Part shown: one piece after another, positions 677 through 62,866 of the stretch
How the letters are laid out: every line of letters begins with the position of its first letter
Numbering within the stretch: position 1 is the stretch's first letter
Origin: Minisyncoccia bacterium
Lineage (GTDB): Bacteria; Patescibacteriota; Minisyncoccia; Phycocordibacterales; UBA9973
DNA: 64,000 nt
Reading direction: 5' to 3'
Assembly: GCA_965656375.1 (NCBI GenBank)
Contig: CBFHKH010000001.1
Location: 708,291-772,290, forward strand
Position numbers and translations under genes: made by a program
The notes under the pieces: model-generated
Seen by the model: only the letters and a program-made list of their open reading frames with translations
Databases searched by the model: none
What the model was told of the DNA's origin: nothing

Positions 677-1474
677 ATGAAAGTAAAAATCCTATTTGAA
701 GACAAAAATGTCCTCGTACTCGACAAGCCAGCGGGTATGGCCGTGCATCCTGACGCGCGTACGACAAAGGAAAAAACTATTTCTGACTTCATCCTGGAGA
801 ATTATCCCACTCTTAAAAACGTGGGTGAGCCGATGATGATAGAATATATGGGCAAGAAAATAGAGATCAAGCGCCCGGGTATTGTCCATCGTCTTGATAG
901 GGAAACATCAGGTGTGCTTCTCGTTGCTAAGAATCAAAAGACGTTTGAATTTCTCAAAGCACAATTTCAAAATCATACAATCAAGAAAGTATATAGGGCG
1001 TTTGTCTACGGATACGTTTCTGATCCGAAAGCATCGCTTGCGACTGGTAAGCGTGGAGTGATCAATGTGCCTATCGGTCGGAGTCCAAAGGATATCCGTA
1101 TGTGGACTGCTGGTCGTGGCGCTCGCGAACCGTTGCGAGAAGCAGTTACTAATTATGTAGTCCTCGATCGATTTACTAATACGAAAAATCCCAAGCCTAC
1201 AGTCGAACATCAGTTTTCATATGTAGAAGCATATCCAAAAACGGGGCGTACTCATCAGATTCGTGTTCATATGCGCTATATAAATCACCCAGTTGTTTCT
1301 GATCCTTTGTACCGCGGAGCAAAAGAGCTTGCGCTTGGGATGAAACGTCTAGCGCTGCATGCATATTCTATTACGTTCAAACTCCCAAGTGGAGTGGAAA
1401 CAACGATCGAGGCTCCACTCCCAACTGATTTCAAGAAAACGATTAAAGCTTATAGTATATCTTCGCCGAAATAA
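677..1474 (+). CDS. RluA-family RNA pseudouridine synthase
   Basis: Catalytic motif HRLDRETSGVLLVAK (the RluA/RluD Asp motif). Size 265 aa. The ATG lies 3 nt after tRNA-Arg. Confidence 0.8.
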   Translation: MKVKILFEDKNVLVLDKPAGMAVHPDARTTKEKTISDFILENYPTLKNVGEPMMIEYMGKKIEIKRPGIVHRLDRETSGVLLVAKNQKTFEFLKAQFQNHTIKKVYRAFVYGYVSDPKASLATGKRGVINVPIGRSPKDIRMWTAGRGAREPLREAVTNYVVLDRFTNTKNPKPTVEHQFSYVEAYPKTGRTHQIRVHMRYINHPVVSDPLYRGAKELALGMKRLALHAYSITFKLPSGVETTIEAPLPTDFKKTIKAYSISSPK

Positions 1475-1604
1475 CCTTCTTTAAATGCACGCATAAAAGC
1501 AAGCTTGCCTTTTGCTCTGCTCGTCGTTCAAGAAAATAATAGTCGGAATACCTTCTTTATTTTCTAAACTCCTGCGCAAGGCATTTAAAGAAGGTTATTT
1601 CGGC
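1465..1604 (+). repeat. copy 1 of a three-copy structured intergenic element: conserved core of about 70 nt flanked by a 24-bp perfect inverted repeat that includes the rluA-family (677..1474) stop codon
   Basis: 5' arm gccgaaataaccttctttaaatgc (1465-1488) is exactly complementary to 3' arm gcatttaaagaaggttatttcggc (1581-1604). The core CTCTGCTCGTCGtTCAAGAAAATAATAG..GGAATACCT.CTTTATTTTCTAAACTCCTGCGCAAGG is shared with copies at about 33831-33967 and 58941-59070. Confidence 0.7.
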
Positions 1605-1657
1605 TTCGACTACGCTCTTTCTTGCGTAAAATACCTATATATGATAAAGTAGGCGCT

Positions 1658-2065
1658 ATGACAACAGGGGAAATCACAAAAGCACAATTCACTTCAGTAG
1701 ATATGGCAAGCCGCAAAAAGCTTGATTTTAAGGCTGGTGACAGTGTTCGCGTCTGGAATAAAATCCAGGAAAAAGGAAAAATCCGTCTTCAAGCATTCGA
1801 AGGCCTTGTTCTTGCACGCAAACATGGAGTAGAAAGTGGCGCTACATTTACTATCCGTAAAGTCGCTTCAGGTGTTGGCGTTGAGCGTATTTTTCCACTC
1901 TATTCTCCAAATATCGATAAGATCGAAGTACTTCGTAAGTCAAAGACTCGTCGAAGTAAACTCTACTATATTCGTACAAAGGCAGTAAAAGAAGTGAAAA
2001 AGCGTTTGAAGAGTGTTACTCTTTCAAAAGAAGAACAAAAAGAATCTGAAGCAAGCGAATCATAA
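1658..2065 (+). CDS. rplS: 50S ribosomal protein L19
   Basis: Matches L19 along its length (…[64 protein letters not shown]…). The track ORF begins at a TTG at 1622, but the internal ATG at 1658 (MTTGEITK…) gives a canonical L19 N-terminus. Confidence 0.85.
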
Positions 2066-5864: not shown

Positions 5865-5937
5865 GGGGGCTATGGTGTAACGGTTAACACTGAGGTTTGT
5901 GGAACCTTCGATCTGGGTTCGATTCCCAGTAGCCCCC
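5865..5937 (+). tRNA. tRNA-His (anticodon GTG) with an extra 5' G(-1)
   Basis: Acceptor G(-1)+GGGGCTA/TAGCCCC+C discriminator, anticodon stem GAGGT/ACCTT with loop TTGTGGA, T-arm CTGGG-TTCGATT-CCCAG. Confidence 0.8.
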
Positions 5938-5980
5938 CATTTAAAAAACGCCTGTACAGGCGTTTTTTAAATGGGGGGCT
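5931..5980. terminator. 50-nt perfect palindrome (bidirectional terminator-like) that includes the tRNA-His 3' end
   Basis: agccccccatttaaaaaacgcctgta|caggcgttttttaaatggggggct. The two 24-nt arms are exact reverse complements. The inner part aaaaaacgcctg…caggcgtttttt is a classical bidirectional terminator. Confidence 0.6.
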
Positions 5981-6105
5981 AAAGAAGTGAACTGCTTCAC
6001 TTCTGTCTGGGAATCGAAAGACTTTTCTGTCATTTGGTTACAAATGCAGAAAAGTACCCGCGACCGTAGGTCGAGATTCCCACCTTCCTATGCTAAAATA
6101 CCACC

Positions 6106-19002: not shown

Positions 19003-19115
19003 ATAGCCATTAGCAGTTAGCATTTAGCTACTAGCCAATGCACATTATAATCTAACTAGTCTTTCAGTAATTACTCGCTAAATGCTAGGAGCTAATCGCT
19101 AAAAGCTAACTATAT
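19003..19115 (+). promoter_or_regulatory. heptad-repeat leader: (TAGCNNN)x5 - 38 nt containing TATAAT - (NGCTANN)x5 - 5 nt - ATG of nrdB
   Basis: tagccat tagcagt tagcatt tagctac tagcc … cattataat … cgctaaa tgctagg agctaat cgctaaa agctaac tatat ATG. Exact period 7. The two arrays are mutually complementary (TAGC/GCTA). The same design recurs before fusA and, 3' half only, before rplK. Confidence 0.55.
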
Positions 19116-33381: not shown

Positions 33382-33849
33382 ATGCGAAACACTATCGAAA
33401 TATATACAGACGGGTCGTCGCTCGGGAATCCTGGTCCAGGGGGCTGGGGAGTTGTGATTGTAAATGGAGAAAAAATTATTCACGAGATTGGTGGGTACGA
33501 GAAAGAGACGACAAATAATCGCATGGAACTCATGGCTGTCATCGAATCACTCAAATATATTCTAAAAGTGTATGCAAATGATACTGTGATAATTCATGCT
33601 GATTCAACATACACCCTCGGCGGGGTGACTACATGGATACACAACTGGGAGAAGAATGGTTGGCGAACTGCAAATAAAAAAGAAGTTTTAAATCAAGATC
33701 TCTGGAAGGAACTCATTACTCTCGTCCGAGAGTTTAAAGGGAATCTCACATGGAACAAAGTAAAAGGTCACTCTGACCATATCTATAATGATCGCGCAGA
33801 TAAAATTGCTACACAATGCTCTTCGCTTCAAGATAGCTATGCTTTATAA
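33382..33849 (+). CDS. rnhA: ribonuclease HI
   Basis: IYTDGSSLGNPGPGGWG N-terminus. Conserved D/E/D catalytic residues. 155 aa. Confidence 0.85.
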   Translation: MRNTIEIYTDGSSLGNPGPGGWGVVIVNGEKIIHEIGGYEKETTNNRMELMAVIESLKYILKVYANDTVIIHADSTYTLGGVTTWIHNWEKNGWRTANKKEVLNQDLWKELITLVREFKGNLTWNKVKGHSDHIYNDRADKIATQCSSLQDSYAL

Positions 33850-33967
33850 AGCACGAATAATTTTCTGGTGAAAATTTTCTCTGCTCGTCGCTCAAGAAAA
33901 TAATAGCAGGAATACCTGCTTTATTTTCTAAACTCCTGCGCAAGGCTTTCTAAAGCATAGCTATCTT
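33831..33967 (+). repeat. copy 2 of the structured intergenic element; outer 22-23-bp stem includes the rnhA stop codon
   Basis: 5' arm aagatagctatgctttataaagc pairs with 3' arm gctttctaaagcatagctatctt (1 mismatch). Core CTCTGCTCGTCGCTCAAGAAAATAATAGCAGGAATACCTGCTTTATTTTCTAAACTCCTGCGCAAGG. Confidence 0.7.
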
Positions 33968-34023
33968 TCGCTCGAAAAACTTTTAATTTTTATATTTATT
34001 TTATTTCTCTCTTTTATACTAGA

Positions 34024-35331
34024 GTGGTGATTTCAAAGAAAGAAATCTGTATACTCGGTATCTTTCTCGTGATTGCGCTTGTGCGCTTTTTCTTTTTTAT
34101 GCCAGAGGCACCAGCGTATGATGATGCAATAGGGGAGAATGTACTCGTTGAAGGTGAAGTAGTAGAACCACCTGATATACGAGTATACAATCAACGTTTG
34201 ACTGTGAAGCCTCGCAACCAGGACACCATTATTCTCGCTGTTGCATCTAAAGACACTGACGTGTCATATGGCGATATCGTTCATGTAGGAGGGATTCTCG
34301 AAGTACCAGAAAACTTTATGACATCGTCAGGAAAAGAGTTTAACTACAAAAGATATCTTGCGAACCAAAATATCTATTTTATTATTAACAAGGCAACTAT
34401 AGAAGTTATTAGAGAAGCTAACGGCAGGAAAATAAAGTCACTTCTCTTTAGATTCAGGAATGCGTATATAAAAAACATTCGGGAAGTTATTCCACCGCCT
34501 GCGAGTGACCTTTCGAATGGTCTCATCTTGGGTGTTCGTGGTGGATTTGATACAACAGTGCGCGATGAATTCATCTCCACTGGCACGATCCATATCATTG
34601 CACTCTCTGGGTACAATGTGACTATCGTTGCTGAAAGTGTGATGAAAATACTCGGGCTCATTTTTGCGCACGTAGTAGGTATCATACTCGGCATGATGGT
34701 CATTGTGCTTTTTGTAGTTCTTTCAGGTGGGTCTGCGACTGCAGTGCGGGCGGGGATCATGGCTGTGATTATACTCCTTGCTCGACTGACAGGCCGCACA
34801 TATGATGCAGGTCGGGCGCTTGTCATTGCAGCACTTTTGATGATTACATATGATCCGCGGGTAATAACTGATATTTCTTTTCAGTTTTCATTTATTGCAA
34901 CTTTTGGTGTATTGTTTCTAACCCCAAAAGTTATAGAGTGGGTGAGATTTATTCCAATCAAATTTGGTTTTCGAGAAGTAGTAGCGACGACACTTGCTGC
35001 CACAATCACAGTTTTGCCGATACTTCTCTATACGACAGGAATTCTTTCTATTGTGTCACTTCCGGCAAATATCTTAATCCTTCCGCTCATACCACTTACT
35101 ATGTTTTTTAGTTTTCTTACCGGAATAGCAGGATTTATATCGCCTGTACTTGCACTCCCATTTGCATATGTTGCTGATTTCCTCCTTTCATACATTCTCT
35201 CTGTTATTCATTTCTTTGCTTCACTCCCATTTGCAAGTGTAACCATACAATCATTCCCACTCATAATAACTCTCATACTTTACGTACTTATTCTCTGGTG
35301 GGTATTTAAGAAACAAAAAGCCATCGGCTAG
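34024..35331 (+). CDS. comEC: ComEC/Rec2-family DNA-uptake channel protein, N-terminal part (OB/DUF4131 plus the competence membrane domain); lacks the metallo-beta-lactamase domain
   Basis: Competence-domain core (…LSNGLILGVRGGFDTTVRDEFISTGTIHIIALSGYNVTIV…). About 9 TM helices. 435 aa. Ends at a shared bidirectional terminator. Confidence 0.7.
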   Translation: MVISKKEICILGIFLVIALVRFFFFMPEAPAYDDAIGENVLVEGEVVEPPDIRVYNQRLTVKPRNQDTIILAVASKDTDVSYGDIVHVGGILEVPENFMTSSGKEFNYKRYLANQNIYFIINKATIEVIREANGRKIKSLLFRFRNAYIKNIREVIPPPASDLSNGLILGVRGGFDTTVRDEFISTGTIHIIALSGYNVTIVAESVMKILGLIFAHVVGIILGMMVIVLFVVLSGGSATAVRAGIMAVIILLARLTGRTYDAGRALVIAALLMITYDPRVITDISFQFSFIATFGVLFLTPKVIEWVRFIPIKFGFREVVATTLAATITVLPILLYTTGILSIVSLPANILILPLIPLTMFFSFLTGIAGFISPVLALPFAYVADFLLSYILSVIHFFASLPFASVTIQSFPLIITLILYVLILWWVFKKQKAIG

Positions 35332-35347
35332 CCGATGGCTTTTTGTT
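35318..35347. terminator. bidirectional terminator shared by comEC(+) and the Fe/Mn-SOD gene (35353..35946, -): aaagccatcggc-tagc-cgatggcttt
   Basis: Perfect 12-bp palindrome with flanking A/T tracts, overlapping the last comEC codons. Confidence 0.65.
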
Positions 35348-35352
35348 TCTTG

Positions 35353-36084: not shown

Positions 36085-36951
36085 ATGGAACGTTTGAGGA
36101 AATATCTGCCGTATATATTGATCGCTTTTATCTGTATCCTCGCGATCTGTATTTGGTATACCATCTATACTCGGGAACAGAACAGATATCTTAAAGTTGC
36201 ATTCCTCGATGTAGGGCAAGGAGACTCGATCTATATCGAAGCACCAAATGGTACCCAGATGCTTATTGATGGTGGGCCGGATGATACGGTTCTTCCGCGT
36301 CTGTCTCGGGTGATGCCATGGGGTGATCGATCTATTGATGTAATTTTGGCTACGCATCCTGATGCTGATCATATTGGCGGACTTGCAAGCGTTCTCGAAC
36401 GCTATCGCGTACCCCGGATTATTGTAAATGGAGGAGAAGTACAGACAAAAATATTTGATCGCCTCGAAAATGCGATAGAGAAAAACAATATAGAAACTAT
36501 CACTGCACGTCGCGGTATGCATATACTCCTTGATAAAGAAAAAAATATTTATTTTGATATTTTGTTTCCTGATCGGGATGTATCGGGATGGAAAGAAACA
36601 AATGACGGCTCGATAGTAGGGAAGCTTGTCTATGGAGATGAATCATTCATGTTCACCGGCGATGCAACATTCTATACAGAAAATCTGATTATGCAGAATG
36701 AAAATCCTGACACGCTTGAGGCTGATGTCCTTAAACTAGGTCATCATGGATCTCATACATCATCGAGTTTATTGTGGCTCGAGAAAGTCCACCCTGAGAT
36801 TGCCATCATTTCTGCTGGTAAAAATAATCGGTATGGTCACCCACACCAGGATGTACTCGATCGATTGTTGCAATTACGTATTCCATACCTCACTACGTAC
36901 GAGCATAATACAGTGCTTCTTAAAACAGATGGAATAAAAATATTTGAATAG
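36085..36951 (+). CDS. membrane-anchored metallo-beta-lactamase-fold protein (stand-alone ComEC C-terminal-type nuclease domain)
   Basis: HPDADHIGG (H.H.DH motif), …GDATFYTE…, …LKLGHHGSHTSSS…. N-terminal TM helix. Confidence 0.7.
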   Translation: MERLRKYLPYILIAFICILAICIWYTIYTREQNRYLKVAFLDVGQGDSIYIEAPNGTQMLIDGGPDDTVLPRLSRVMPWGDRSIDVILATHPDADHIGGLASVLERYRVPRIIVNGGEVQTKIFDRLENAIEKNNIETITARRGMHILLDKEKNIYFDILFPDRDVSGWKETNDGSIVGKLVYGDESFMFTGDATFYTENLIMQNENPDTLEADVLKLGHHGSHTSSSLLWLEKVHPEIAIISAGKNNRYGHPHQDVLDRLLQLRIPYLTTYEHNTVLLKTDGIKIFE

Positions 36952-36953
36952 AT

Positions 36954-37021
36954 GCTTCATCAAAGAATACATTTGAAAGGTCCTCGGGTAGGGTCACCAG
37001 ACCATTTCAAATGTATTCTTT
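36954..37021. terminator. long perfect hairpin (18-bp stem caaagaatacatttgaaa / tttcaaatgtattctttg, 27-nt loop)
   Basis: Seen directly. Lies between the MBL gene (+) and rpmB (-). Confidence 0.5.
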
Positions 37022-37049
37022 GACTACGCATTCGTTATTATGACTATAT

Positions 37050-37086
37050 AAAATAAAATCCTCACACTAGTGAGGATTTTATTTTA
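37050..37086. terminator. bidirectional terminator aaaatcctcac-acta-gtgaggatttt (serves rpmB on the minus strand)
   Basis: 11-bp perfect stem flanked by A- and T-tracts, immediately 3' of rpmB. Confidence 0.65.
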
Positions 37087-37324
37087 TGATTCCAGCTTTC
37101 TTGAGGACTGTATATGCACCATGTTTGTTGATAGTTTTGATTGCCTGGGTTGAGATTGTGAGTGGGAAGTATTTCTTAAGCTCTGGCACATAAACACGCT
37201 TTTTCTGAAGGTTCGGATACTTGCGGACCATGCCAGTTGGGTTGAATTTAGTAGCACGAACTACGTTTGAGTAGCCGCCTGCCATCCGAGAGCCCTTTTT
37301 AGTTATTTCGCATACTTTCGCCAT
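37079..37324 (-). CDS. rpmB: 50S ribosomal protein L28
   Basis: MAKVCEITKKG…GYSNVVRATKF… is typical L28. 81 aa. Confidence 0.8.
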   Translation of the reverse strand: MAKVCEITKKGSRMAGGYSNVVRATKFNPTGMVRKYPNLQKKRVYVPELKKYFPLTISTQAIKTINKHGAYTVLKKAGIIK

Positions 37325-38037: not shown

Positions 38038-39945
38038 ATGACACGAACATCCCCTCAAAAAATCGTTTCTCGCCGTTCAATGTTTATCACAGGGGGGTTC
38101 TTTATTGCGCTCTCTCTCGCATATATCTCTGCCTTTGCAAATCCACCCGGTTCTCCATATCAGGCTGGTGCCACGCTTGATCCTACATGTGCCCCGGGAG
38201 ATACCAACTGTTTCGTACAGATCATTCCTGATCAGACAGGCCATGCGGGAGAATATCTAACTACTGATGGTAGTGTGATGAGTTGGGCGAGTGTGACCGT
38301 ATCGCCAAATTTGCAGCAGGTGACTACTGCAGGAAATACCACCGATACGGATATTGTAATAGCTGACTCTGGTGGCGGCGACAAATTTTTCAGTATTAAG
38401 CCTGTAGGTACTACTTACCCCGTTATTTCATTGCGAGGAAGCACGATACAAGGAGGAACACTGATACTCTCTGATGGATTGGATACATATAGAAGCTTCA
38501 TAGGAACAGCAATATTGTCAGCCAATCAAACTATTAATTTCCCAAATGCAAGCGGCACGGTAGCTCTTTTGTCTACTACATGGGGTCTACAAGGTAATGC
38601 AGGTACCATTCCAGGAACTGATTTCATTGGAACTACTGATAATGTTGATTTAGTCCTAAAAAGAAATAATGTTGAAACATTTAGGTTGAGAGATAACTAT
38701 GCAGTTCAGATGGGATCTAGTACTACTGCATCAGGCCCCAAGTCTTTATCTATAGGTGAAAATACACTCGCTTCTGGAGATATTTCAGTAGCAATGGGAT
38801 TTGGTTCAGTTTCATCAGGTGCCGTTTCTGCTGCTTTTGGAACAAGCACAGCTTCAGGCACCACTTCTATTGCAATGGGGGCAGGAACAACTGCATCAGG
38901 AAATTATTCGACATCAATAGGTGTTTCATCAATAGCATCTGGAGAAATATCTTCTGCGTTAGGGTATTTTACAGAATCAAAATCATATGGAGGTACGGTG
39001 GTAGGAATTTTTAATGATTCAACCAATGCTGCATCACCTACTAGTACTAATCCTTTAAATAGAATATTTCAAATTGGTAATGGTACAGCGAACAATGCTC
39101 GGTCAAATGCAATGACGGTATTAGGTAACGGTAATATCGGTATTGGCAATCTCACCCCCGGCTTCCTCCTCCACGTAGGCTCCTCATCCATCACTGACGG
39201 CACCACACTCATGAGATTACAAGACACAAACTCAGTCTGTGACTTCAATGCAAACACTGGAGCCCCAACCTGCGGTTCAGACCTCACCCTCAAGAAAGAT
39301 GTTACCTCACTCTCAACATCAGATCTCCTTTCCAAGATCTCATCCCTCAACCCCGTCTCATACCACTGGCTCACTGAAGGCACATCCGCACCACTCCAGT
39401 ACGGATTCATCGCTCAAGAAGTCGCTACTCAATTCCCAGACCTCGTTACAGATCATACCTGGATCGATGGCACCACCCGCAAGTTCTTAAACATGAGTGG
39501 TCTCATGCCATATGTGGTGGGTGCGGTGAGGGAGATGAATATTAAACTGAGTGGTATAAGCGATATATCTACACCAAATCCATGGCGCGATGTTCTTACT
39601 GCATGGCTTTCAAATGCGACGAATCGCATCAGTCGTATATTCACCGGAGAGATTTGCCTCACTGATCCGGATGGAAGTTCTGAATGTATTACGAAAAGCG
39701 AACTTCATCAATTGAAGCAATTGCTCAACCAAACTCCACCACCTTCTGGCGGCGGCGGTGGAGGTGGAGACACCCCACCCGCTACAGATACCTGCCCTAA
39801 TATCGATGGTGATCAGGCACAAATTCCGGAAGGATATCATCTCGATGGAAGCACGTGTGTAGAAGATCAAGTCACTCCACCAACTGATGGAGGTACAGAA
39901 GGAACCGATGTTCCACCGGTGGAGATTCCGGCAGGATCAAATTAA
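38038..39945 (+). CDS. surface fibre/adhesin-like protein: N-terminal signal anchor, Hep_Hag/YadA-head-like Ser/Ala/Gly repeats, C-terminal peptidase-S74 intramolecular chaperone-like domain, poly-Gly linker, short C-terminal tail
   Basis: Repeats …ASG.IS.A.G..S.ASG… Chaperone-like segment DLTLKKDVTSLSTSDLLSKISSLNPVSYHWLTEG…YGFIAQEVATQFPDLVTDHTW…LNMSGLMPYVVGAVREMNIKLSGIS. Followed by GGGGGGG. Confidence 0.55.
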   Translation: MTRTSPQKIVSRRSMFITGGFFIALSLAYISAFANPPGSPYQAGATLDPTCAPGDTNCFVQIIPDQTGHAGEYLTTDGSVMSWASVTVSPNLQQVTTAGNTTDTDIVIADSGGGDKFFSIKPVGTTYPVISLRGSTIQGGTLILSDGLDTYRSFIGTAILSANQTINFPNASGTVALLSTTWGLQGNAGTIPGTDFIGTTDNVDLVLKRNNVETFRLRDNYAVQMGSSTTASGPKSLSIGENTLASGDISVAMGFGSVSSGAVSAAFGTSTASGTTSIAMGAGTTASGNYSTSIGVSSIASGEISSALGYFTESKSYGGTVVGIFNDSTNAASPTSTNPLNRIFQIGNGTANNARSNAMTVLGNGNIGIGNLTPGFLLHVGSSSITDGTTLMRLQDTNSVCDFNANTGAPTCGSDLTLKKDVTSLSTSDLLSKISSLNPVSYHWLTEGTSAPLQYGFIAQEVATQFPDLVTDHTWIDGTTRKFLNMSGLMPYVVGAVREMNIKLSGISDISTPNPWRDVLTAWLSNATNRISRIFTGEICLTDPDGSSECITKSELHQLKQLLNQTPPPSGGGGGGGDTPPATDTCPNIDGDQAQIPEGYHLDGSTCVEDQVTPPTDGGTEGTDVPPVEIPAGSN

Positions 39946-39957
39946 TTTTTATAGCGT

Positions 39958-41985
39958 ATGGTACAGAAACACTACAAAACATTTTTGAAATATATTTTTC
40001 TACTCATGCTTGTGTGTGTATCGTTTAGTGTAGAAGCAGGGAATATCACATCCAATCATACCGCTCAAGTCTGCGAGAATGCCGCATGTACTGTATCGAA
40101 CACCTCTCCAATCAATTTTGGAGTGTTTACTGATCCACTCGCTTCGCCATTTAATGTTACTGTAACTAACACAGAGCTCACCGGGCTCATATGGGGTAAA
40201 TCGTTTGGATGGGTAGTGCTCAATTGTGTAAATACGATAGCACCTGGTGCGCCAGGGGGATTGCCAGGTAGTGGATGTACACCAGCAAACGGCAATTTTA
40301 AAGTTACTAATGACAGTCATGGAAATCTTTCCGGCTGGGCATGGGGAGAAACGAGTGGATGGATAAATTTCAATAGCAAAGCAAATTGCGATCTCGACAA
40401 AAATGGCTTTACCGATGTGGCCTGTGATGGAGACAATACTACTACAGCGATTGTAGATTTCAAGGTTACCATTAACTCCCTTGGGCAGTTTAATGGATAT
40501 GCGTGGGCTCAAAATCAAGGATATATAAAATTCGATTGTCCAAATTCAGACTACTGCGTAGAGACAACATGGCGGCCACCATCTGATGGAGGCGGAGGCG
40601 GTGGCGGCGGGGGAGGTCCGACAAAGTGTGTTGATCCGAATGCTACAAACAACGGAGGTCCACTTCCGTGCACGTATCCGCCATACTGCACGCTTCACCC
40701 TACTGATCCATCATGCGTAACTCATCCACCGTATTGTACGCAATATCCGAATGACCCAAGCTGTAATCCGCCACCACCTCCATACTGTGCTACTCATCCT
40801 ACGGACCCGGCATGTAATCCAACTCCGACATTCTGCACTCTCTATCCAACGGATCCAGCATGTACAACTCCTCCCTCATACTGCACGCTTCACCCTACTG
40901 ATCCATCATGCGTACCACCACCTGGATGTACGGGGACAAATTGTATTGTGCCACCACCGGGATGCACTGGTCCCAGTTGTATCAATCCGCCAGTGTGCCT
41001 TTACTGTACGCTCATAGACCCTATTAAAGAAATTCCTGGAGGAATTATTGGGAAAATCATTATTGGAGCGGGTGCTCTCTTTGGTGCGATATTTACCTTC
41101 TCGACAGCTCTCTTTGCAAATCCGATCACATTCTCTGAAATATTCCTTATCCCAATTCGTTTGTGGAGTCTGTTCCTCTCTGCGCTTGGACTTAAAAAGC
41201 GCAATCGTCCATGGGGTATCGTCTATGATAGCGTTACCAAGCAACCGCTTGACCCTGCATATGTCATTCTTCAGGATTTGGAAGGCAATGAAGTCACTAC
41301 TTCGATCACTGATCTTGATGGTCGGTATGGATTCCTTGTTCCGGCTGGCAAGTATCGTATGATTGCCCACAAGACGAATTATGAATTCCCATCGCGAAAG
41401 CTCGCAGGCAAGAAGAGCGATGAACTGTATTCTGATCTGTATTTCAATGAAATCATTACCATAAATGAGGATGAAGTGATCACAAAAAATATTCCGATGG
41501 ATCCACTCAATTTCGATTGGAATGAATTTGCGAAGCGCGACCAGAAGCTGATGAAATTCTATTCTGTACGCGATGTATGGATTACTCGACTTGTGAACAC
41601 GCTCTTCTACTTTGGGTTTGCTTTAACAACAGTCGCGGTTATCGTCACGCCAGTGACATACAACATAGTTACCTTTATTCTCTACATTGTACTCTTTACT
41701 CTTAAACATACCGTCCTCAAGCCTCGGCCGTTTGGTAAGATTCGCTACAAGGGAAGTGGCATACCGGTTTCATTTGCAGTTCTCCGTGTATTTGCCGCAT
41801 CTATCGATCGCGAGGTGATAAAGAAAGTAAGTGACAGAAATGGTAAATATTACTGTCTTGTTCCAAATGGAACCTACTATGTAAAGATAGAACAGAAGAA
41901 TGTCGATGAAAGTTATAGTCCACTCTATACCTCAGCTCCGATTGAAGTCAAAAATGGCTATATAAACAAGAAATTTGAAGTGTAA
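39958..41985 (+). CDS. secreted/membrane repeat protein: signal peptide, poly-Gly (11 residues), six tandem Cys-containing 13-aa repeats ([YF]C[TA][LQT][HY]P[TN]DP[SA]C), multi-TM segment, carboxypeptidase-regulatory/CnaB-like beta-sandwich domain
   Basis: Read directly from the translation. Signal peptide MVQKHYKTFLKYIFLLMLVCVSFSVEAG. Confidence 0.5.
   Translation: MVQKHYKTFLKYIFLLMLVCVSFSVEAGNITSNHTAQVCENAACTVSNTSPINFGVFTDPLASPFNVTVTNTELTGLIWGKSFGWVVLNCVNTIAPGAPGGLPGSGCTPANGNFKVTNDSHGNLSGWAWGETSGWINFNSKANCDLDKNGFTDVACDGDNTTTAIVDFKVTINSLGQFNGYAWAQNQGYIKFDCPNSDYCVETTWRPPSDGGGGGGGGGGPTKCVDPNATNNGGPLPCTYPPYCTLHPTDPSCVTHPPYCTQYPNDPSCNPPPPPYCATHPTDPACNPTPTFCTLYPTDPACTTPPSYCTLHPTDPSCVPPPGCTGTNCIVPPPGCTGPSCINPPVCLYCTLIDPIKEIPGGIIGKIIIGAGALFGAIFTFSTALFANPITFSEIFLIPIRLWSLFLSALGLKKRNRPWGIVYDSVTKQPLDPAYVILQDLEGNEVTTSITDLDGRYGFLVPAGKYRMIAHKTNYEFPSRKLAGKKSDELYSDLYFNEIITINEDEVITKNIPMDPLNFDWNEFAKRDQKLMKFYSVRDVWITRLVNTLFYFGFALTTVAVIVTPVTYNIVTFILYIVLFTLKHTVLKPRPFGKIRYKGSGIPVSFAVLRVFAASIDREVIKKVSDRNGKYYCLVPNGTYYVKIEQKNVDESYSPLYTSAPIEVKNGYINKKFEV
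40675..40930 (+). repeat. intragenic tandem DNA repeats of about 39 nt encoding the PTDPxC peptide repeats; two units are identical over 37 nt
   Basis: tactgcacgcttcaccctactgatccatcatgcgta occurs twice, at about 40684 and about 40878. Confidence 0.7.
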
Positions 41986-43128: not shown

Positions 43129-43220
43129 TAGCGACTAGCTTCTAGCACCTAGCTCCTAGTATAAGAATTTCAAGGTTTATTTATTACTGCTAGCAGCTAG
43201 AAGCTAGCGCCTAAAAGCTA
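43129..43220 (+). promoter_or_regulatory. heptad-repeat leader before fusA: (TAGCNNN)x4 - spacer with TATAAG - (GCTAGNN/GCTANNN)x5 - 6 nt - ATG
   Basis: tagcgac tagcttc tagcacc tagctcc tag-tataagaatttcaaggtttatttattact-gctagca gctagaa gctagcg cctaaaa gcta tttatt ATG. The arms are largely complementary (gcgactagcttctagc vs gctagaagctagcgc). Confidence 0.55.
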
Positions 43221-52567: not shown

Positions 52568-52610
52568 ACAAAACAACAAAACACCCGCATATGCGGGTGT
52601 TTTGTTGTTG
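52568..52610. terminator. bidirectional terminator acaaaacaacaaaacacccgc-atat-gcgggtgttttgttgttg
   Basis: About 19-bp palindrome directly after rplK. Confidence 0.7.
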
Positions 52611-55074: not shown

Positions 55075-55105
55075 ACAAAAAAACGTTGCCATATGGCAAC
55101 GTTTT
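55075..55105. terminator. bidirectional terminator aaaaaaacgttgccat-atggcaacgtttttt
   Basis: Perfect palindrome between the convergent genes 54665..55057 (+) and recA (-). Confidence 0.7.
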
Positions 55106-55112
55106 TTCAGTT

Positions 55113-56642: not shown

Positions 56643-58832
56643 TTATGCTTCTGTATTATCAATAGGCTTCTCGAGGACTTCACGTGGTTTTGCGCCATTG
56701 CCAGGACTTACTACTCCGCGTTCTTCAAGCATGTCGATAAGTCGCGCTGCACGCGCATAACCAACTCCGAGTTTGCGTTGCAAGTATGACGTAGAGGCTT
56801 TTCCAGCTTCCATCACTGTCGCTCGAGCATCTTCGTAGAGATCATCTTCATCATCATCACTCATCGTGTCACTGAACATGTTGCTACCCTTATCTATAGA
56901 GCCGGAAAGTTCGATTGTATCAGGTAGCTCGTCCATGTAGGCCTTCTTGAGATATTCTACCACTTTTTTGACTTCGTCTTCAGAGAGATATGCACTCTGT
57001 ATACGCTCTGGCTGGGACATTTCACCTGACGCATAGAGCATGTCTCCGGCACCAAGGAGCTTTTCGGCTCCACCTGCATCGAGGATCGTACGAGAATCTA
57101 TCTGAGAGGACACTTGGAGCGCCAAACGGGTAGGGACGTTTGCCTTGATAAGGCCAGTAATAACGTTTACGGATGGGCGCTGAGTTGAAAGAATGAGGTG
57201 AATACCCACTGCACGAGACATCTGGGCAAGGCGTACAATCGCACTCTCGAGCTCACGCGGATATGCTTGCATGATATCTGCCAGTTCATCGATGACGATG
57301 ACGATATATGGCATACGCTCAATCTCATCTTTACCTTTGCCACCCTTATATACTGTCGCATGATATGACTCAATATCTCGGACAGACTCTGCCTGAAGCA
57401 CATCATATCTACGATCCATTTCCTTTGCTGCCCACTTGAGCGCGAGGATAGTTTTCTTTGGATCAGTAATAACAGGGGTCAAAAGGTGAGGGATCTTGTT
57501 ATAGAGGGTAAGTTCAACGCGCTTTGGGTCGACGAGTATGAGACGTAGATCATCCGGACCGTTTCTATAGAGGAGCGAGGTGATAATTGAGTGCACGGTG
57601 ACCGATTTACCTGATCCAGTTGTACCTGCAATAAGCGCATGAGGCATTTTTGCCAAATTTCCAAAGATAGATTTTCCAGAAAGCCCTCTTCCAAGCGCAA
57701 CTGTGAGTGGCTTTGGAGAATTCTGGAATTTATCGTCAGAGAGGAGAGTCGCGAGGCCGACGGTAGATTTTACTTTGTTTGGAATCTCGATACCGACAAG
57801 AGACTTTCCAGGAATAGGAGCCTCGATACGAATAGGGTGGGCAGCAAGCGCAAGCGCAAGATCACTCTGAAGTCCTACGATACGAGAGAGCTTTACGCCT
57901 TGTGCAGGCTTGAGTGCATAGCGAGTGACAGTCGGACCGATAGTGACTTCATCCATCTCTACAGAGATGCCAAAGTTGAGAAGTGTGCGCTGAATAATAT
58001 TCATGTTGCCTTTCAAGTCCCCGACATTTGGTTTACCTTTATCCTTCTCAAGGAGTGAGAGTGGGGGAGGAGTATAGGTTGTCTTGAATTTCTTTTTGAC
58101 TGAAAATGTTTCTTCTTCTCCTTCTTTTGTTGGACTCTCATCATATTCAAGGAGTGTATTCTCATCCGGCGCTTGTTCTTCCGGTATTTCTTCACCTCGA
58201 TCCTCAGCTACAAATTCACTCTCATCATATTCTTTTCGTAGTGAGGGCATGCGGATATCTCTTGAAAAGAACGCACGAATCTTTTTCCAGAGAGTGATAA
58301 GGTCAGGGCGCTCATCACAAAGGATAATGAGCGAGATGATAAGAAGAGTGCCGAGTATCAATATACCAGCATAGATGCCGAATAATTTCACAAATGGCCA
58401 TGCGACCATACTGCCGAGATATCCGCCAAAAAATATATTGATTGACTTTCCGCTTCCGTTGCTCGCAATATCCATGATACCGAGAGTAGAGAGGAGAACT
58501 CCGATCGATGTGATGAAATGAAGTCGTGCAACTTGCGGCTTACCTTTCCGGAGAAATGAAACACCGACAACGGCGAGAAGTATCGGAAGGAAATAATATC
58601 CAAACCCAAAAAAAGAACTCATGAGAGAGTATGAGAATTCGCCGGCGATTCCTGCAAGCTTGAATATTGAGAGCAAGAAAAAGAGTCCGAACACGAGAAA
58701 TACGATACCCCAAATGCTATGTCGAGTCTCTTCTTTTAGTTCGACTTTTTTAGATTTTTTTTTGTTGCTCTTGCCTTTGCTTCGCGGTTTCTCTACGATT
58801 TCATCTTCATCCTCGATATCTTTTTTTGCCAT
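56643..58832 (-). CDS. ftsK: DNA translocase FtsK/SpoIIIE
   Basis: N-terminal 4-5 TM helices, long linker, motor domain with Walker A GTTGSGKS, C-terminal gamma (winged-helix) domain. Start at the in-frame ATG (MAKKDIE…); the track start at 58844 is a TTG. Confidence 0.85.
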   Translation of the reverse strand: MAKKDIEDEDEIVEKPRSKGKSNKKKSKKVELKEETRHSIWGIVFLVFGLFFLLSIFKLAGIAGEFSYSLMSSFFGFGYYFLPILLAVVGVSFLRKGKPQVARLHFITSIGVLLSTLGIMDIASNGSGKSINIFFGGYLGSMVAWPFVKLFGIYAGILILGTLLIISLIILCDERPDLITLWKKIRAFFSRDIRMPSLRKEYDESEFVAEDRGEEIPEEQAPDENTLLEYDESPTKEGEEETFSVKKKFKTTYTPPPLSLLEKDKGKPNVGDLKGNMNIIQRTLLNFGISVEMDEVTIGPTVTRYALKPAQGVKLSRIVGLQSDLALALAAHPIRIEAPIPGKSLVGIEIPNKVKSTVGLATLLSDDKFQNSPKPLTVALGRGLSGKSIFGNLAKMPHALIAGTTGSGKSVTVHSIITSLLYRNGPDDLRLILVDPKRVELTLYNKIPHLLTPVITDPKKTILALKWAAKEMDRRYDVLQAESVRDIESYHATVYKGGKGKDEIERMPYIVIVIDELADIMQAYPRELESAIVRLAQMSRAVGIHLILSTQRPSVNVITGLIKANVPTRLALQVSSQIDSRTILDAGGAEKLLGAGDMLYASGEMSQPERIQSAYLSEDEVKKVVEYLKKAYMDELPDTIELSGSIDKGSNMFSDTMSDDDEDDLYEDARATVMEAGKASTSYLQRKLGVGYARAARLIDMLEERGVVSPGNGAKPREVLEKPIDNTEA

Positions 58833-58940
58833 AATGTCTGCCAATTATATCATAAATTTTCTTCGAATTCTTATGTTTATTTCTGTGAATTCTAACAATC
58901 TTTTTTAGTAAATTTTGTCACTCCATTCTGGCTCTCCTTG

Positions 58941-59070
58941 GCATAGTCTTCTCGAAAGACCGCATAATTTCGTACTCGGAATTTGCTCTGCTCGTCACTC
59001 AAGAAAATACTAACAGGAGTACCTGCTTTATTTCCTAAGTTCCTGCGCAAGATCTTTCTCAAAGATATGC
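58941..59070 (+). repeat. copy 3 of the structured intergenic element, here in the divergent region between ftsK(-) and gene 59172(+)
   Basis: Core CTCTGCTCGTCACTCAAGAAAATACTAACAGGAGTACCTGCTTTATTTCCTAAGTTCCTGCGCAAG. Imperfect outer stem of about 20 bp gcatagtcttctcgaaagac / gatctttctcaaagatatgc. Confidence 0.65.
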
Positions 59071-59171
59071 CTGCGTAAACCCAGAATACTACCATCTTGC
59101 ATTAGATTTTTTTGAGTATATAATGGACAAATTAAAGACATAAAAACACCTCAATCTTAGCTAAAAAGACA

Positions 59172-60008
59172 ATGGATAATCAAAAGGACACAAAGAATAC
59201 AAACCTTAATTCTTACGGACATGGAAGTCCTGCGGTCTCTAACCTATTGGTACATAAGACTGAATACAACTTCATCAACAAAAAGACAGAGAAGCTCGTC
59301 ACTGCTCTTTACATGGTCACAGACTGCATGGATGCTGATGACGCACTCAAGTCTAAGCTTCGCACTCTTGGGGTAGAATTGCTGTCCGATATGCATCAGG
59401 TATCTGTGCTCCTTCCGGCAGAAAAGAGTACTCATGTATCTGTATCGCTCTCTCGTATAGAGGAGCTGCTCTCTTTCATAAACATTGCCTCAACCATGGG
59501 ATTCATGTCAGAAATGAACAGTAGAATACTTCACCGAGAGTTCGGTTTCTTGGTCACAGAGCTAGAATCACACACTTCAAAAGATGCTCATTTTGCACTC
59601 ACTCTCTCGGATGAAATGTTCCATGTAGAAAAGCCGAAAGCAGATTTTTTCCCGAGAGAAAGATTCGTAAAAGACAGTCACTATACTAAAGGACAGATTT
59701 TTAAAAAGACATATTCACCTCAAAATGGATCGGGTAAGATTCCTTCACCACTCTCTCATTCAAAAGGACTTATAAATAACAAATCTACTACTGGGAGTAA
59801 AGATGAGAGAACAGGCAAGATCTTGTCCTTTATAAAGGACAAGAAAGATGCTCCAGGATATAAAGATGGATTGTCCATAAAGGACATCTCTGCTGTCTTT
59901 ACTGACTGTGGGGAAAAGACAATCCAGCGCGAATTGAATGCACTCGTCTCAAAAGGAGAAATTAAAAAAGTAGGAGCAAAACGCTGGAGTCGGTATCAGG
60001 CCCTCTAG
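59172..60008 (+). CDS. hypothetical protein with probable C-terminal winged-helix DNA-binding domain
   Basis: The C-terminal 60 aa (…ISAVFTDCGEKTIQRELNALVSKGEIKKVGAKRWSRYQAL) looks like a wHTH. The remainder has no motifs. Confidence 0.35.
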   Translation: MDNQKDTKNTNLNSYGHGSPAVSNLLVHKTEYNFINKKTEKLVTALYMVTDCMDADDALKSKLRTLGVELLSDMHQVSVLLPAEKSTHVSVSLSRIEELLSFINIASTMGFMSEMNSRILHREFGFLVTELESHTSKDAHFALTLSDEMFHVEKPKADFFPRERFVKDSHYTKGQIFKKTYSPQNGSGKIPSPLSHSKGLINNKSTTGSKDERTGKILSFIKDKKDAPGYKDGLSIKDISAVFTDCGEKTIQRELNALVSKGEIKKVGAKRWSRYQAL

Positions 60009-62832: not shown

Positions 62833-62866
62833 CAAAAAACCACCCCATTGGGGTGGTTTTTTGTTA
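62833..62866 (+). terminator. rho-independent terminator aaaaaaccacccc-attg-gggtggtttttt
   Basis: Perfect stem plus T-run, 50 nt after the stop. Confidence 0.7.

Follow-up and report, generated by a model that had tools for sequence, protein, structure and literature searches.

What are the three related palindromic elements that lie between genes in a 64,000-nucleotide stretch of a Minisyncoccia bacterium genome (contig CBFHKH010000001.1, positions 708,291 to 772,290; hereafter the window), and how did they come to be there? Patescibacteria have among the smallest and most streamlined bacterial genomes, cannot be grown alone, and their non-coding DNA is almost unknown. A preliminary description of the window had offered two readings of the element: a structured RNA with covarying stems, or a small non-autonomous mobile element that had inserted into the loops of pre-existing gene-end hairpins. 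The reading that we favour, with slightly better than even confidence, takes one part from each. The copies would belong to a family of non-autonomous palindromic structured repeats that are gained and lost like a miniature mobile element and that adopt a three-armed fold on one strand.

With a covariance model based on relatives from other genomes, we recovered exactly three full-length elements in the window and no further match at E < 0.5. A 24-nt core pattern likewise matched three times, against no match in 100 dinucleotide-preserving shuffles, so that the three same-orientation copies first described were recovered by both routes. Aligned over about 190 nt, they share 76% column identity, and their 64-nt core is nearly identical. 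Also as first described, the 5' arms of copies 1 and 2 overlap the ends and stop codons of the upstream RluA-family gene and rnhA (Table 1). No open reading frame (ORF) of 60 aa or more lies inside an element, and no T-run follows the stem of any of the three copies on either strand. Copy 3 departs from this picture, as it is not at a gene end but between the divergent ftsK and a gene for a 278-aa protein.

Relatives are numerous. We scanned one genome per prokaryotic species with a pattern of the two junction blocks (CTGCTCGTCNNTCA, 25-55 nt, TCCTGCGCAAG), which returned at least 117 stretches. More than 110 of these are true element places, and among the matches listed they fall in about 75 species-level Patescibacteria assemblies, which supplies the further copies that the preliminary description had proposed to look for. 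Host labels among the matches listed are Nomurabacteria, Paceibacterota, Parcubacteria, Minisyncoccia, 'Patescibacteria group' and one Gracilibacteria bin, together with many third-party bins labelled 'uncultured Saccharibacteria'; this last label is probably generic, because the proteins that flank the element in those bins share 60-80% identity with those of the window. Three high-GC matches (Noviherbaspirillum, Hyphomonadaceae and Isosphaeraceae) were rejected as chance, and all other listed matches are in Patescibacteria assemblies. The core pattern had no match in viral contigs. The element-selected loci hold 121 copies in 743 kb. Copy density varies, from three per 64 kb in the window to two clear matches in 297 kb of loci anchored on the L19 gene. 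With its small housekeeping operons, type IV pilus genes, comEC and G+C content of about 41%, the window is a typical member of the element-bearing Patescibacteria group.

The family was found neither in Rfam nor in the literature that we searched. At gathering scores, Rfam returned four tRNAs for the window and no family for the element; in the region 1400-1680, Rfam 15 at E values up to 10 gave only noise (plant microRNA precursors and small nucleolar RNAs, at 9-21 bits against cut-offs of 38-140). A search of full-text literature on repeats and structured RNAs of Patescibacteria, the candidate phyla radiation (CPR) and Parcubacteria found no description of the element; TIGR-Tas arrays, considered as a match from this literature, are tandem arrays and unrelated. 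An exact-protein look-up for closer strains had a single match, a 1.6-kb contig of the same strain. The family appears to be a new, uncatalogued set of structured palindromic repeats of Nomurabacteria/Paceibacteria-type Patescibacteria, resembling miniature inverted-repeat transposable elements (MITEs) and REPINs, and it is the first interspersed palindromic repeat family of this kind that we can find for Patescibacteria in the literature. Matches to the model at 32 bits in two loci, L136 and L131, proved to be a different insert at the 3' end of a tRNA-Leu gene and not the element. That insert, of about 175 bp (L136:2464-2640 and L131:~560-760), stands right after the tRNA gene and is flanked by the duplicated tRNA 3' end (TCTTCTCCTGCGCAC...); L138 is the corresponding empty site, and the insert resembles a very small integrative element.

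An alignment of 116 copies gave a three-way junction as consensus fold, in a unit of 110-150 nt. Its closing stem, P1, comprises 20-35 bp (arm median 28 nt, interquartile range 20-32 nt), in which a G.A mismatch and a bulge recur. The fold further contains a sequence-constant 4-bp helix, UUGC/GCAG, one U.G pair included, and a purine-rich internal loop, GCA / GA, with a G-C pair after it; the junction motif, as read on the structured strand, is 5'-CUUGC GCA G GA ... GA C GA GCAG-3'. Two forms of the element exist. The long form (about 150 nt) alone has a tandem GA/GA step and two covarying pairs (of GC, GU, AU, UA and CG types), after which come U-A, U.G and A-U pairs with a bulged U and an A/U-rich stem with a variable tip. 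The second arm, P2, is a hairpin of 46 nt in this form; the short form (about 110 nt) has a 4-bp GC mini-hairpin in its place (CUUGC GCA GGCU GACG AGCC GA GCAG). The third arm, P3, is a hairpin of 7-10 bp with an A-N-Y-N loop, after which comes a joining strand of 6-7 nt. It occurs as type A, CUGGCGA-AGCU-UCGCCAG followed by AUAGAUUGC, or as type B, GCAAAAAUUC-AGCA-GAAUUUU-A-UGU, after which GUGC opens the 3' arm of P1. In the window, each of the three copies has the long form and a type B P3. A kink-turn (K-turn) was considered for the internal loop and rejected, as manual inspection found no register that fits the G.A/A.G and 3-nt bulge rule without breaking covarying NN:NN pairs. Hammerhead, twister and other ribozyme cores left no consensus motif visible by eye and no Rfam signal.

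The fold is strongly supported by covariation. Standard pairs occupy 97.6% of 4520 paired cells, against 77.9% after shuffling and 42-47% with slid partners. Compensatory changes occur in 29 of the 39 consensus pairs, with 822 doubly changed cells against 222 expected, and none of 500 shuffles reached any observed pairing measure. All seven pairs of P3 covary across the family. In P1, the preliminary description had seen outer stems that were unique to each copy and perfectly paired. Pairing is indeed complete in copy 1 and slightly less so in copy 2 (Table 1), and uniqueness is confined to the outermost ~11 bp, the inner ~12-20 bp being conserved across the family. The best view of these outer 11 bp is that they form the distal, quickly evolving part of a long stem common to the family, in which both arms change together.

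Two measures identify the strand on which the fold is selected. Of 115 copies, 108 have their better fold on the minus-sense strand, with a mean difference of 9.1 kcal/mol; for the three window copies the energies are -64.4, -59.7 and -49.9 kcal/mol on the minus strand against -55.3, -53.4 and -31.9 on the plus strand. At consensus pairs, G-U occurs in 359 cells and A-C in 27 (127 against 27 at variable pairs), G-U exceeding A-C at 22 pairs and the reverse holding at 5, a count somewhat biased by the prediction of the structure on the structured strand, from which bias the free-energy comparison is free. In the L116 copy, about five positions of P1 pair only as G-U, and do so on the structured strand only. 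The fold is therefore selected on the minus strand of the window, opposite to the strand on which the element was first written out. Of the proposal of a structured RNA with covarying stems, the structure and its covariation are thus upheld, on the reverse complement; as the active form, RNA is one candidate beside single-stranded DNA.

The rluA-rplS junction, which holds copy 1, gives the clearest view of how the element arrives. We fetched 80 metagenomic loci encoding relatives of L19, of which 65 retain rluA-rplS synteny, most with 40-60 nt between the end of the RluA match and rplS. About 60 relatives have a clean junction, without the element and without a hairpin. At these empty junctions RluA ends in ...YLA*, and its TAA falls within the conserved rplS promoter CTTGCTTAAAATACCTATATATGATAAAGT, a promoter that the window keeps (TCTTGCGTAAAATACC...) downstream of copy 1. 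In-silico removal of 1466-1608 (143 nt, that is, the 138-nt palindromic element and one CTTCG copy) joins ...TCT TCG to ACT ACG CTC TTT CTT GCG TAA and yields an ORF ending in ...LFLA*, with the conserved stop in the rplS -35 element. The frame restored at the conserved ...LA* and the CTTCG repeat place the whole stem of copy 1 within the inserted DNA. Judged from these sequences, copy 1 is a whole palindrome, its 24-bp stem included, inserted in the 3' end of rluA, the last residues of which now read -PK.

Among the 65 syntenic loci this junction is filled only in the window and L118, by the long form, and in L173 and L137, by short copies at a slightly different point. In L145 and L169 it carries an unrelated palindromic insert. 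The latter belongs to a second insert family, with arms containing AGGTGTGGG(CGCGC) and CCCCACACCTATATTTTTAT, which uses the same intergenic hot spots as the element; it occurs at L053:4920-5010, at L207:1180-1290 and upstream of rplS in L145 and L169, with a remnant in L173 and L137. The rplS promoter itself (1620-1657 in the window; about 65 related loci, L119-L198) is highly conserved, has an extended -10 and stands a mere ~10 nt from the ATG, which leaves the mRNA with almost no leader; its -35 element contains the rluA stop codon in most relatives.

The flanks of rpsO show a reciprocal pattern of presence and absence. Upstream, a long copy precedes the promoter in L058, and L116 and L073 have none; downstream, copies are present in L116 (long, type A) and L073 (degenerate short, type B) and absent from L058. 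The empty rpsO-flank sites, too, are without a hairpin. Insertion sites are thus polymorphic between related genomes at rluA-rplS and at both sides of rpsO, where the whole palindrome, stem included, has been gained at new intergenic or gene-end positions and lost elsewhere. Flanking direct repeats of at least 5 nt border 22 of 89 copies against 7.9 expected, and TTCG, TTCA and TCGCT recur at element boundaries without being fixed. No clear target duplication was seen at L058, at L116 or at two near-identical L072 copies. P1 hairpins without a core, which could be empty targets or excision scars, were absent from the 1.26 Mb searched. Of the second proposal, mobility is accordingly well supported, by the ~60 empty rluA-rplS junctions and the rpsO flanks; the expectation that empty sites would be plain hairpins failed, these being clean in related genomes.

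Other copies have stayed in place for long. Relatives whose RnhA is 71-78% identical to that of the window (L200/L202, L203/L204, L205 and L207) carry the short form at the identical place after rnhA, where the plus-strand P1 arm is made of the last five or six rnhA codons and TAA AGC. The common RnhA ending, ...LQxxHxL*, and with it the window rnhA codons in the stem are probably element-derived, because the arm resembles the P1 consensus at unrelated sites (AAGAAAACATATTTTATAAAGC vs AAGAATCAATTTTTATAAAGC). L199 RnhA ends in ...YASKQEGN*, without element and without tail; L206 and L208 lack the element at this site yet keep the arm-like tail. The arms differ between orthologues and stay complementary: GATAGCTATGCTTTA / TAAAGCATAGCTATC in the window, GAAAACATATTTTA / TAAAACATGTTTTC in L203 and AGCAAAAGTATGTTTTA / TAAAACATACTTCTGCT in L207. 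Leftover mismatches in these arms are A-C on the plus strand, which is G-U on the structured strand, and the P3 stems of the orthologues covary as well.

The ftsK site of copy 3 is occupied in at least 11 other species, 12 with the window, by copies that face either way, have either P3 type and come from several P1 subfamilies. There, the outer arm TTTCAGCAAG/CTTGCTGAAA is common to L063 and L098, whose cores point in opposite directions. Within genomes the copies resemble one another: 23 of 26 multi-copy genomes have a single P3 type, and core identity averages 85% within genomes against 75% between them, P1 identity being low in both comparisons. The same site with different core forms and types, together with this within-genome likeness, implies turnover by repeated insertion into the few gaps that tolerate it, gene conversion between copies, or inversion between arms. 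At some sites the element has persisted across many species, with both arms changing together.

As to surroundings, all copies are intergenic and adjoin or overlap the ends of genes. With respect to the structured strand, the 106 classified gene pairs are antisense/antisense in 34 cases, convergent in 27, divergent in 27 and sense/sense in 18. The neighbours, assigned from translations, are housekeeping genes (ftsK, recA, efp, ssb, atpC/atpD, fpg, yqeY-like, secA, murE and rpsO). At its densest, in L072, five copies occur within 8 kb and fill nearly every intergenic gap; they alternate in orientation, on which ground we rejected a dependence on the replication strand. No -35/-10 pair was found at a fixed position in the element, and promoter-like sites are not enriched, with 4 of 91 copies having one upstream of the structured strand and 9 of 91 on the opposite side. 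One P1 subfamily contains 'ATGCCAAGAAAG' (MPRK), which raised the idea of translation-start sequestration; in L030 it lies antisense after efp, with no gene start, and the idea was dropped. No transposase was found near dense loci.

A number of points weigh against a mobile, one-strand element. Its termini differ in sequence from copy to copy, whereas the inverted repeats that classical transposases bind are conserved, and flanking repeats vary in length and are clear only at copy 1. The frequent G-U pairs are typical of RNA more than of DNA hairpins. Retention with compensatory change at orthologous sites would fit a host function too. Part of the apparent invariance of the junction nucleotides comes from the collecting pattern, which required them; those copies that the model alone detected (short forms, L137, L073 and L200-L207) still hold CTGCTCG and CTG(C/A/T)GCAAG. 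A mobilising gene has also not come to light: 40 proteins of the window include no transposase, recombinase or reverse-transcriptase domain, the five-copy L072 locus has housekeeping genes only and no transposase, and a weak phmmer search of 4252 ORFs in the 1.26 Mb, with an IS200 TnpA sequence as query, found no tnpA-like ORF. Those 1.26 Mb amount to about 1.5 genomes' worth spread over about 100 genomes, and the absence of TnpA or RAYT is not thereby shown.

Several of these points would be explained if the element were a structured RNA with a function for the host, made from the minus strand or carried within read-through mRNAs, mobility having served only its initial spread; candidate jobs are an RNA processing or RNase III site, an mRNA 3'-end stabiliser, an operon insulator or a protein-binding small RNA. 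Covariation is strong, the excess of G-U over A-C (359:27) and the L116 stem with its structured-strand G-U pairs point the same way, and copies at rnhA and ftsK, their stems and P3 compensated, are retained in species that share no more than 62-78% identity in RnhA and FtsK. Streamlined genomes, moreover, rarely retain 150 nt of non-functional DNA. Against this, orientation is unbiased with respect to flanking genes, antisense being commoner than sense (34 against 18), and the 27 copies between divergent genes are beyond any read-through. Nor is there a promoter-like site upstream or at a fixed internal position, most relatives do without the element at rluA-rplS, and density can be as high as 3 per 64 kb or as low as about 2 per 297 kb. 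We regard such a host RNA as rather unlikely, yet as a serious rival. Less likely still is a phylum-specific structured RNA module with a dedicated protein partner, for which two versions may be imagined, sharing between them the small credence that we give it. In one, the module would be copied through an RNA intermediate in the manner of short interspersed nuclear elements (SINEs), in keeping with a G-U-rich one-strand fold, variable flanking repeats, unconserved termini and the lack of an internal promoter; in the other, it would be a domesticated RNA 'punctuation' system for transcript processing or insulation in candidate-phyla bacteria. In both, the variable long stem would set the point of cleavage or integration by structure and not by sequence.

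The fold could instead be incidental to an ordinary double-stranded-DNA MITE, moved by a DDE transposase with a 5-bp target duplication. Long terminal inverted repeats, small size, the lack of an ORF, the 5-nt repeat at copy 1, the excess of flanking repeats elsewhere and long and short forms like those of Correia elements all suit such an origin; the terminal sequences, however, are the least conserved part of the element, and double-stranded recognition explains neither the covariation of P2 and P3 nor the asymmetry of strand pairing, which makes this improbable. We give even less weight to the loop insertion proposed in the preliminary description, by which an element of about 100 nt entered the loops of old gene-end hairpins and the outer stems are old terminators. 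There are precedents, in IS1397 inserted into REP sequences and in RUP, BOX and Correia elements; the window genome is full of perfect loop-less palindromic terminators, one of which, at comEC-sodA (35308-35351), has the element in its place in L050 and L053, and several outer arms in other genomes, among them those of L042, L079 and the short copies of L072, look like A-tract/stem/T-tract terminators. Yet the three empty junctions, at rluA-rplS and both rpsO sides, have no hairpin, the 5-nt repeat and restored frame put the 24-bp stem of copy 1 inside the insert, two L072 copies at different sites have common outer arms, no core-less P1 is known from the 1.26 Mb, and the element also sits in divergent promoter regions, where a terminator is needless. 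That the element is itself a complex bidirectional intrinsic terminator is hardly credible: the stem is long in both orientations and some copies elsewhere are flanked by A- and T-tracts, but no T-tract follows any window copy, a quarter of copies (27/106) lie between divergent genes, the conserved asymmetric junction is unnecessary for termination, and the genome already uses simple palindromic terminators.

Returning to a mobile repeat with a one-strand fold, we propose that the conserved junction, P3 and the base of P2 would make up the surface that a trans-acting factor, with one gene per genome, recognises. By analogy with the logic of REP/RAYT or IS200/IS605, the simplest candidate for this factor would be an enzyme that mobilises the element by acting on one folded DNA strand, because the structured strand has no promoter and a quarter of copies are out of reach of read-through. 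P1 would then mark the limits of the element by its structure and not its sequence, and core homogeneity within genomes would arise from turnover or gene conversion. Selection for a long duplex that works from either strand, like the bidirectional terminators of this genome, may maintain the near-perfect outer stems with their Watson-Crick pairs only, and so perhaps may template-switch correction of near-palindromes during replication. Where transcribed, P1 could form a duplex of at least 20 bp, a possible RNase III-type or stabilising hairpin in either direction; RNase III cuts the hairpins of Correia elements in Neisseria transcripts.

For the biology of these reduced genomes, the element matters in several ways. 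In some lineages it fills up to most intergenic regions, as in the L072 locus. It reshapes gene ends, having replaced the RluA tail and probably supplied that of RnhA, and it stands directly upstream of the promoters of housekeeping genes (rplS, rpsO and ftsK). A covariance model is ready for annotating Patescibacteria genomes, in which the element can serve as a marker for strain and lineage comparison and as a test case for the persistence and co-evolution of palindromic repeats. It also points to a trans-acting factor, whether enzyme or RNA-binding protein, which phyletic profiling could reveal.

Table 1. Positions of the three element copies in the window, with their parts and neighbouring genes. 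Sequences marked RNA are in RNA sense on the structured strand.
Feature	Positions	Strand	Sequence	Remarks
Copy 1	1460..1607	-		Long form; full covariance-model match, 145.7 bits, E 1.9e-35; RluA-family gene 677..1474 (+) on one side, rplS promoter and gene 1658..2065 (+) on the other
Copy 1, P1 arm (plus-strand 5')	1465..1488		GCCGAAATAACCTTCTTTAAATGC	24 nt, 100% complementary to 1581-1604; covers RluA-gene codons SPK and stop
Copy 1, partner P1 arm	1581..1604		GCATTTAAAGAAGGTTATTTCGGC	Inverted-repeat pair with 1465-1488
Copy 1, left flanking direct repeat	1461..1465		CTTCG	5 nt; read from sequence
Copy 1, right flanking direct repeat	1604..1608		CTTCG	5 nt
Copy 1, P3 hairpin	1491..1515	-	GCAAAAGGCA-AGCU-UGCUUUU-A-UGC (RNA)	Type B
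Copy 1, 64-nt core	1517..1580	-	CUUGC GCA G GA-(P2)-GA C GA GCAG (RNA)	P2 ~46 nt, with U.G pair and bulged U
Copy 2	33824..33971	-		Long form; 134 bits (covariance model); between rnhA 33382..33849 (+) and comEC 34024..35331 (+); recJ-rnhA-comEC synteny
Copy 2, P1 arm (plus-strand 5')	33830..33852		AAGATAGCTATGCTTTATAAAGC	23 nt, 96% complementary to partner; holds final six rnhA codons (QDSYAL) and stop
Copy 2, partner P1 arm	33945..33967		GCTTTCTAAAGCATAGCTATCTT	
Copy 2, 64-nt core	33881..33944	-		
Copy 3	58932..59078	-		Long form; 103.7 bits (covariance model); divergent gap between ftsK 56643..58844 (-) and 278-aa gene of unknown function 59172..60008 (+)
Copy 3, P1 arm	58940..58961		GGCATAGTCTTCTCGAAAGACC	Imperfect; resembles family subfamily AATAGCTTCTCTCGAAAAGC
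Copy 3, partner P1 arm	59051..59071		GATCTTTCTCAAAGATATGCC	
Copy 3, 64-nt core	58988..59051	-		One mismatch to 24-nt 5' core pattern

Some further features of the window were noted alongside. Its plain terminators are perfect palindromes of an A-tract, a GC-rich stem and a T-tract, with arms of 14-26 nt and 0-6 nt between them (at 383-424, 5930-5981, 35308-35351, 52572-52609, 55078-55107, 62833-62863 and other places), an architecture that suggests bidirectional use. The 278-aa gene beside copy 3 (59172-60008) and its orthologues encode a conserved protein of about 280 aa without a Pfam match, always divergent with ftsK, and the gap between the two is the most often occupied element site. Two 'TAGC'-rich imperfect inverted repeats lie in the nrdA-nrdB gap (19004-19101) and the rpsG-fusA gap (43135-43207); their sequences, TAGCCATTAGCAGTTAGCATTTAGCTACTA... 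and CTAGCTTCTAGCACCTAGC.../GCTAGCAGCTAGAAGCTAG, both end in ..CTAAAAGCTA just before the next ATG, and may represent another small family of repeats or leaders. The arms of an inverted repeat at 36952-37031 (27 nt, separated by 26 nt) are 89% complementary; this repeat lies right after a metallo-beta-lactamase-fold gene (36085..36951) and is followed by a perfect 18-nt hairpin (37048-37087). At 38038-41985, two adjacent genes encode large proteins, one with Peptidase_S74 (an intramolecular chaperone) and YadA-head repeats and the other with CarboxypepD_reg domains; these may be surface or tail-fibre-like proteins.

Among known systems, the repetitive extragenic palindromes (REPs) and REPINs that are paired with RAYT in Proteobacteria come close in many respects, being short non-coding intergenic palindromes in many copies per genome, with a long hairpin, recognition of single-strand structure, long-persisting co-evolving arms and no transposase inside the unit. 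The present element differs in lacking a GTAG-type tetranucleotide and in its asymmetric three-way junction, where REPINs are symmetric doublets of REPs: its P2 does not resemble its P3, and there is no repeated REP unit. No RAYT-like gene was found, the host phylum is another one, and the sequences are unrelated. Correia elements of Neisseria (CREE/NEMIS) share the size (~100-155 bp), a long and a short form, with an internal segment of ~50 bp making the difference, long terminal inverted repeats, insertion at gene ends and promoters, and transcript hairpins cleavable by RNase III. In contrast to their sequence-conserved inverted repeats, TA duplication and IHF site, our element has variable termini, a flanking repeat of ~5 nt at one clear site, and covarying internal hairpins. 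ERIC and BOX/RUP elements are likewise imperfect intergenic palindromes of ~100-130 nt, often transcribed, in either orientation and across genera, with a modular build (BOX), internal-insertion variants (ERIC) and mobility by unknown means; they are unrelated in sequence and host, and the three-way junction, the sequence-constant purine-rich loop and the strand asymmetry set the element apart from them.

No sign was found of the link to IS200/IS605 raised in the preliminary description: no tnpA-like ORF was seen in the 1.26 Mb searched, and the element has long terminal inverted repeats, which IS200/IS605 lacks. Palindrome-associated transposable elements (PATEs) of this group do resemble it in being non-autonomous, in forming hairpins on one strand and in a possible short target preference (the recurrent TTCG, TTCA and TCGCT). 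PATEs, however, have no terminal inverted repeats, two similar subterminal hairpins and no target duplication, whereas the element has arms of 20-35 bp, a P2 unlike P3 and boundary motifs that are not fixed. With integron attC sites it shares a folded single strand as the recognised form, conservation of structure over sequence, mismatches and bulges that mark the active strand, and a variable distal part, but not the R''/R' core (RYYYAAC/GTTRRRY), the cassette array or the integrase context, its copies being dispersed among rluA, rplS, rnhA, comEC and ftsK. As in MITEs, the unit is shorter than 300 bp, has no ORF of 60 aa or more, occurs in many copies and shows insertion-site polymorphism; long inverted arms are always present, but they vary from copy to copy in their outermost 10-15 nt, and no insertion sequence that could be the parent came to light. 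In its behaviour the element is like the REP/REPIN, ERIC, Correia and BOX/RUP repeats, yet it lacks defining features of each. Distinctive of the family are an asymmetric three-way junction, a swappable P2 module, non-conserved termini and a phylum-wide spread.

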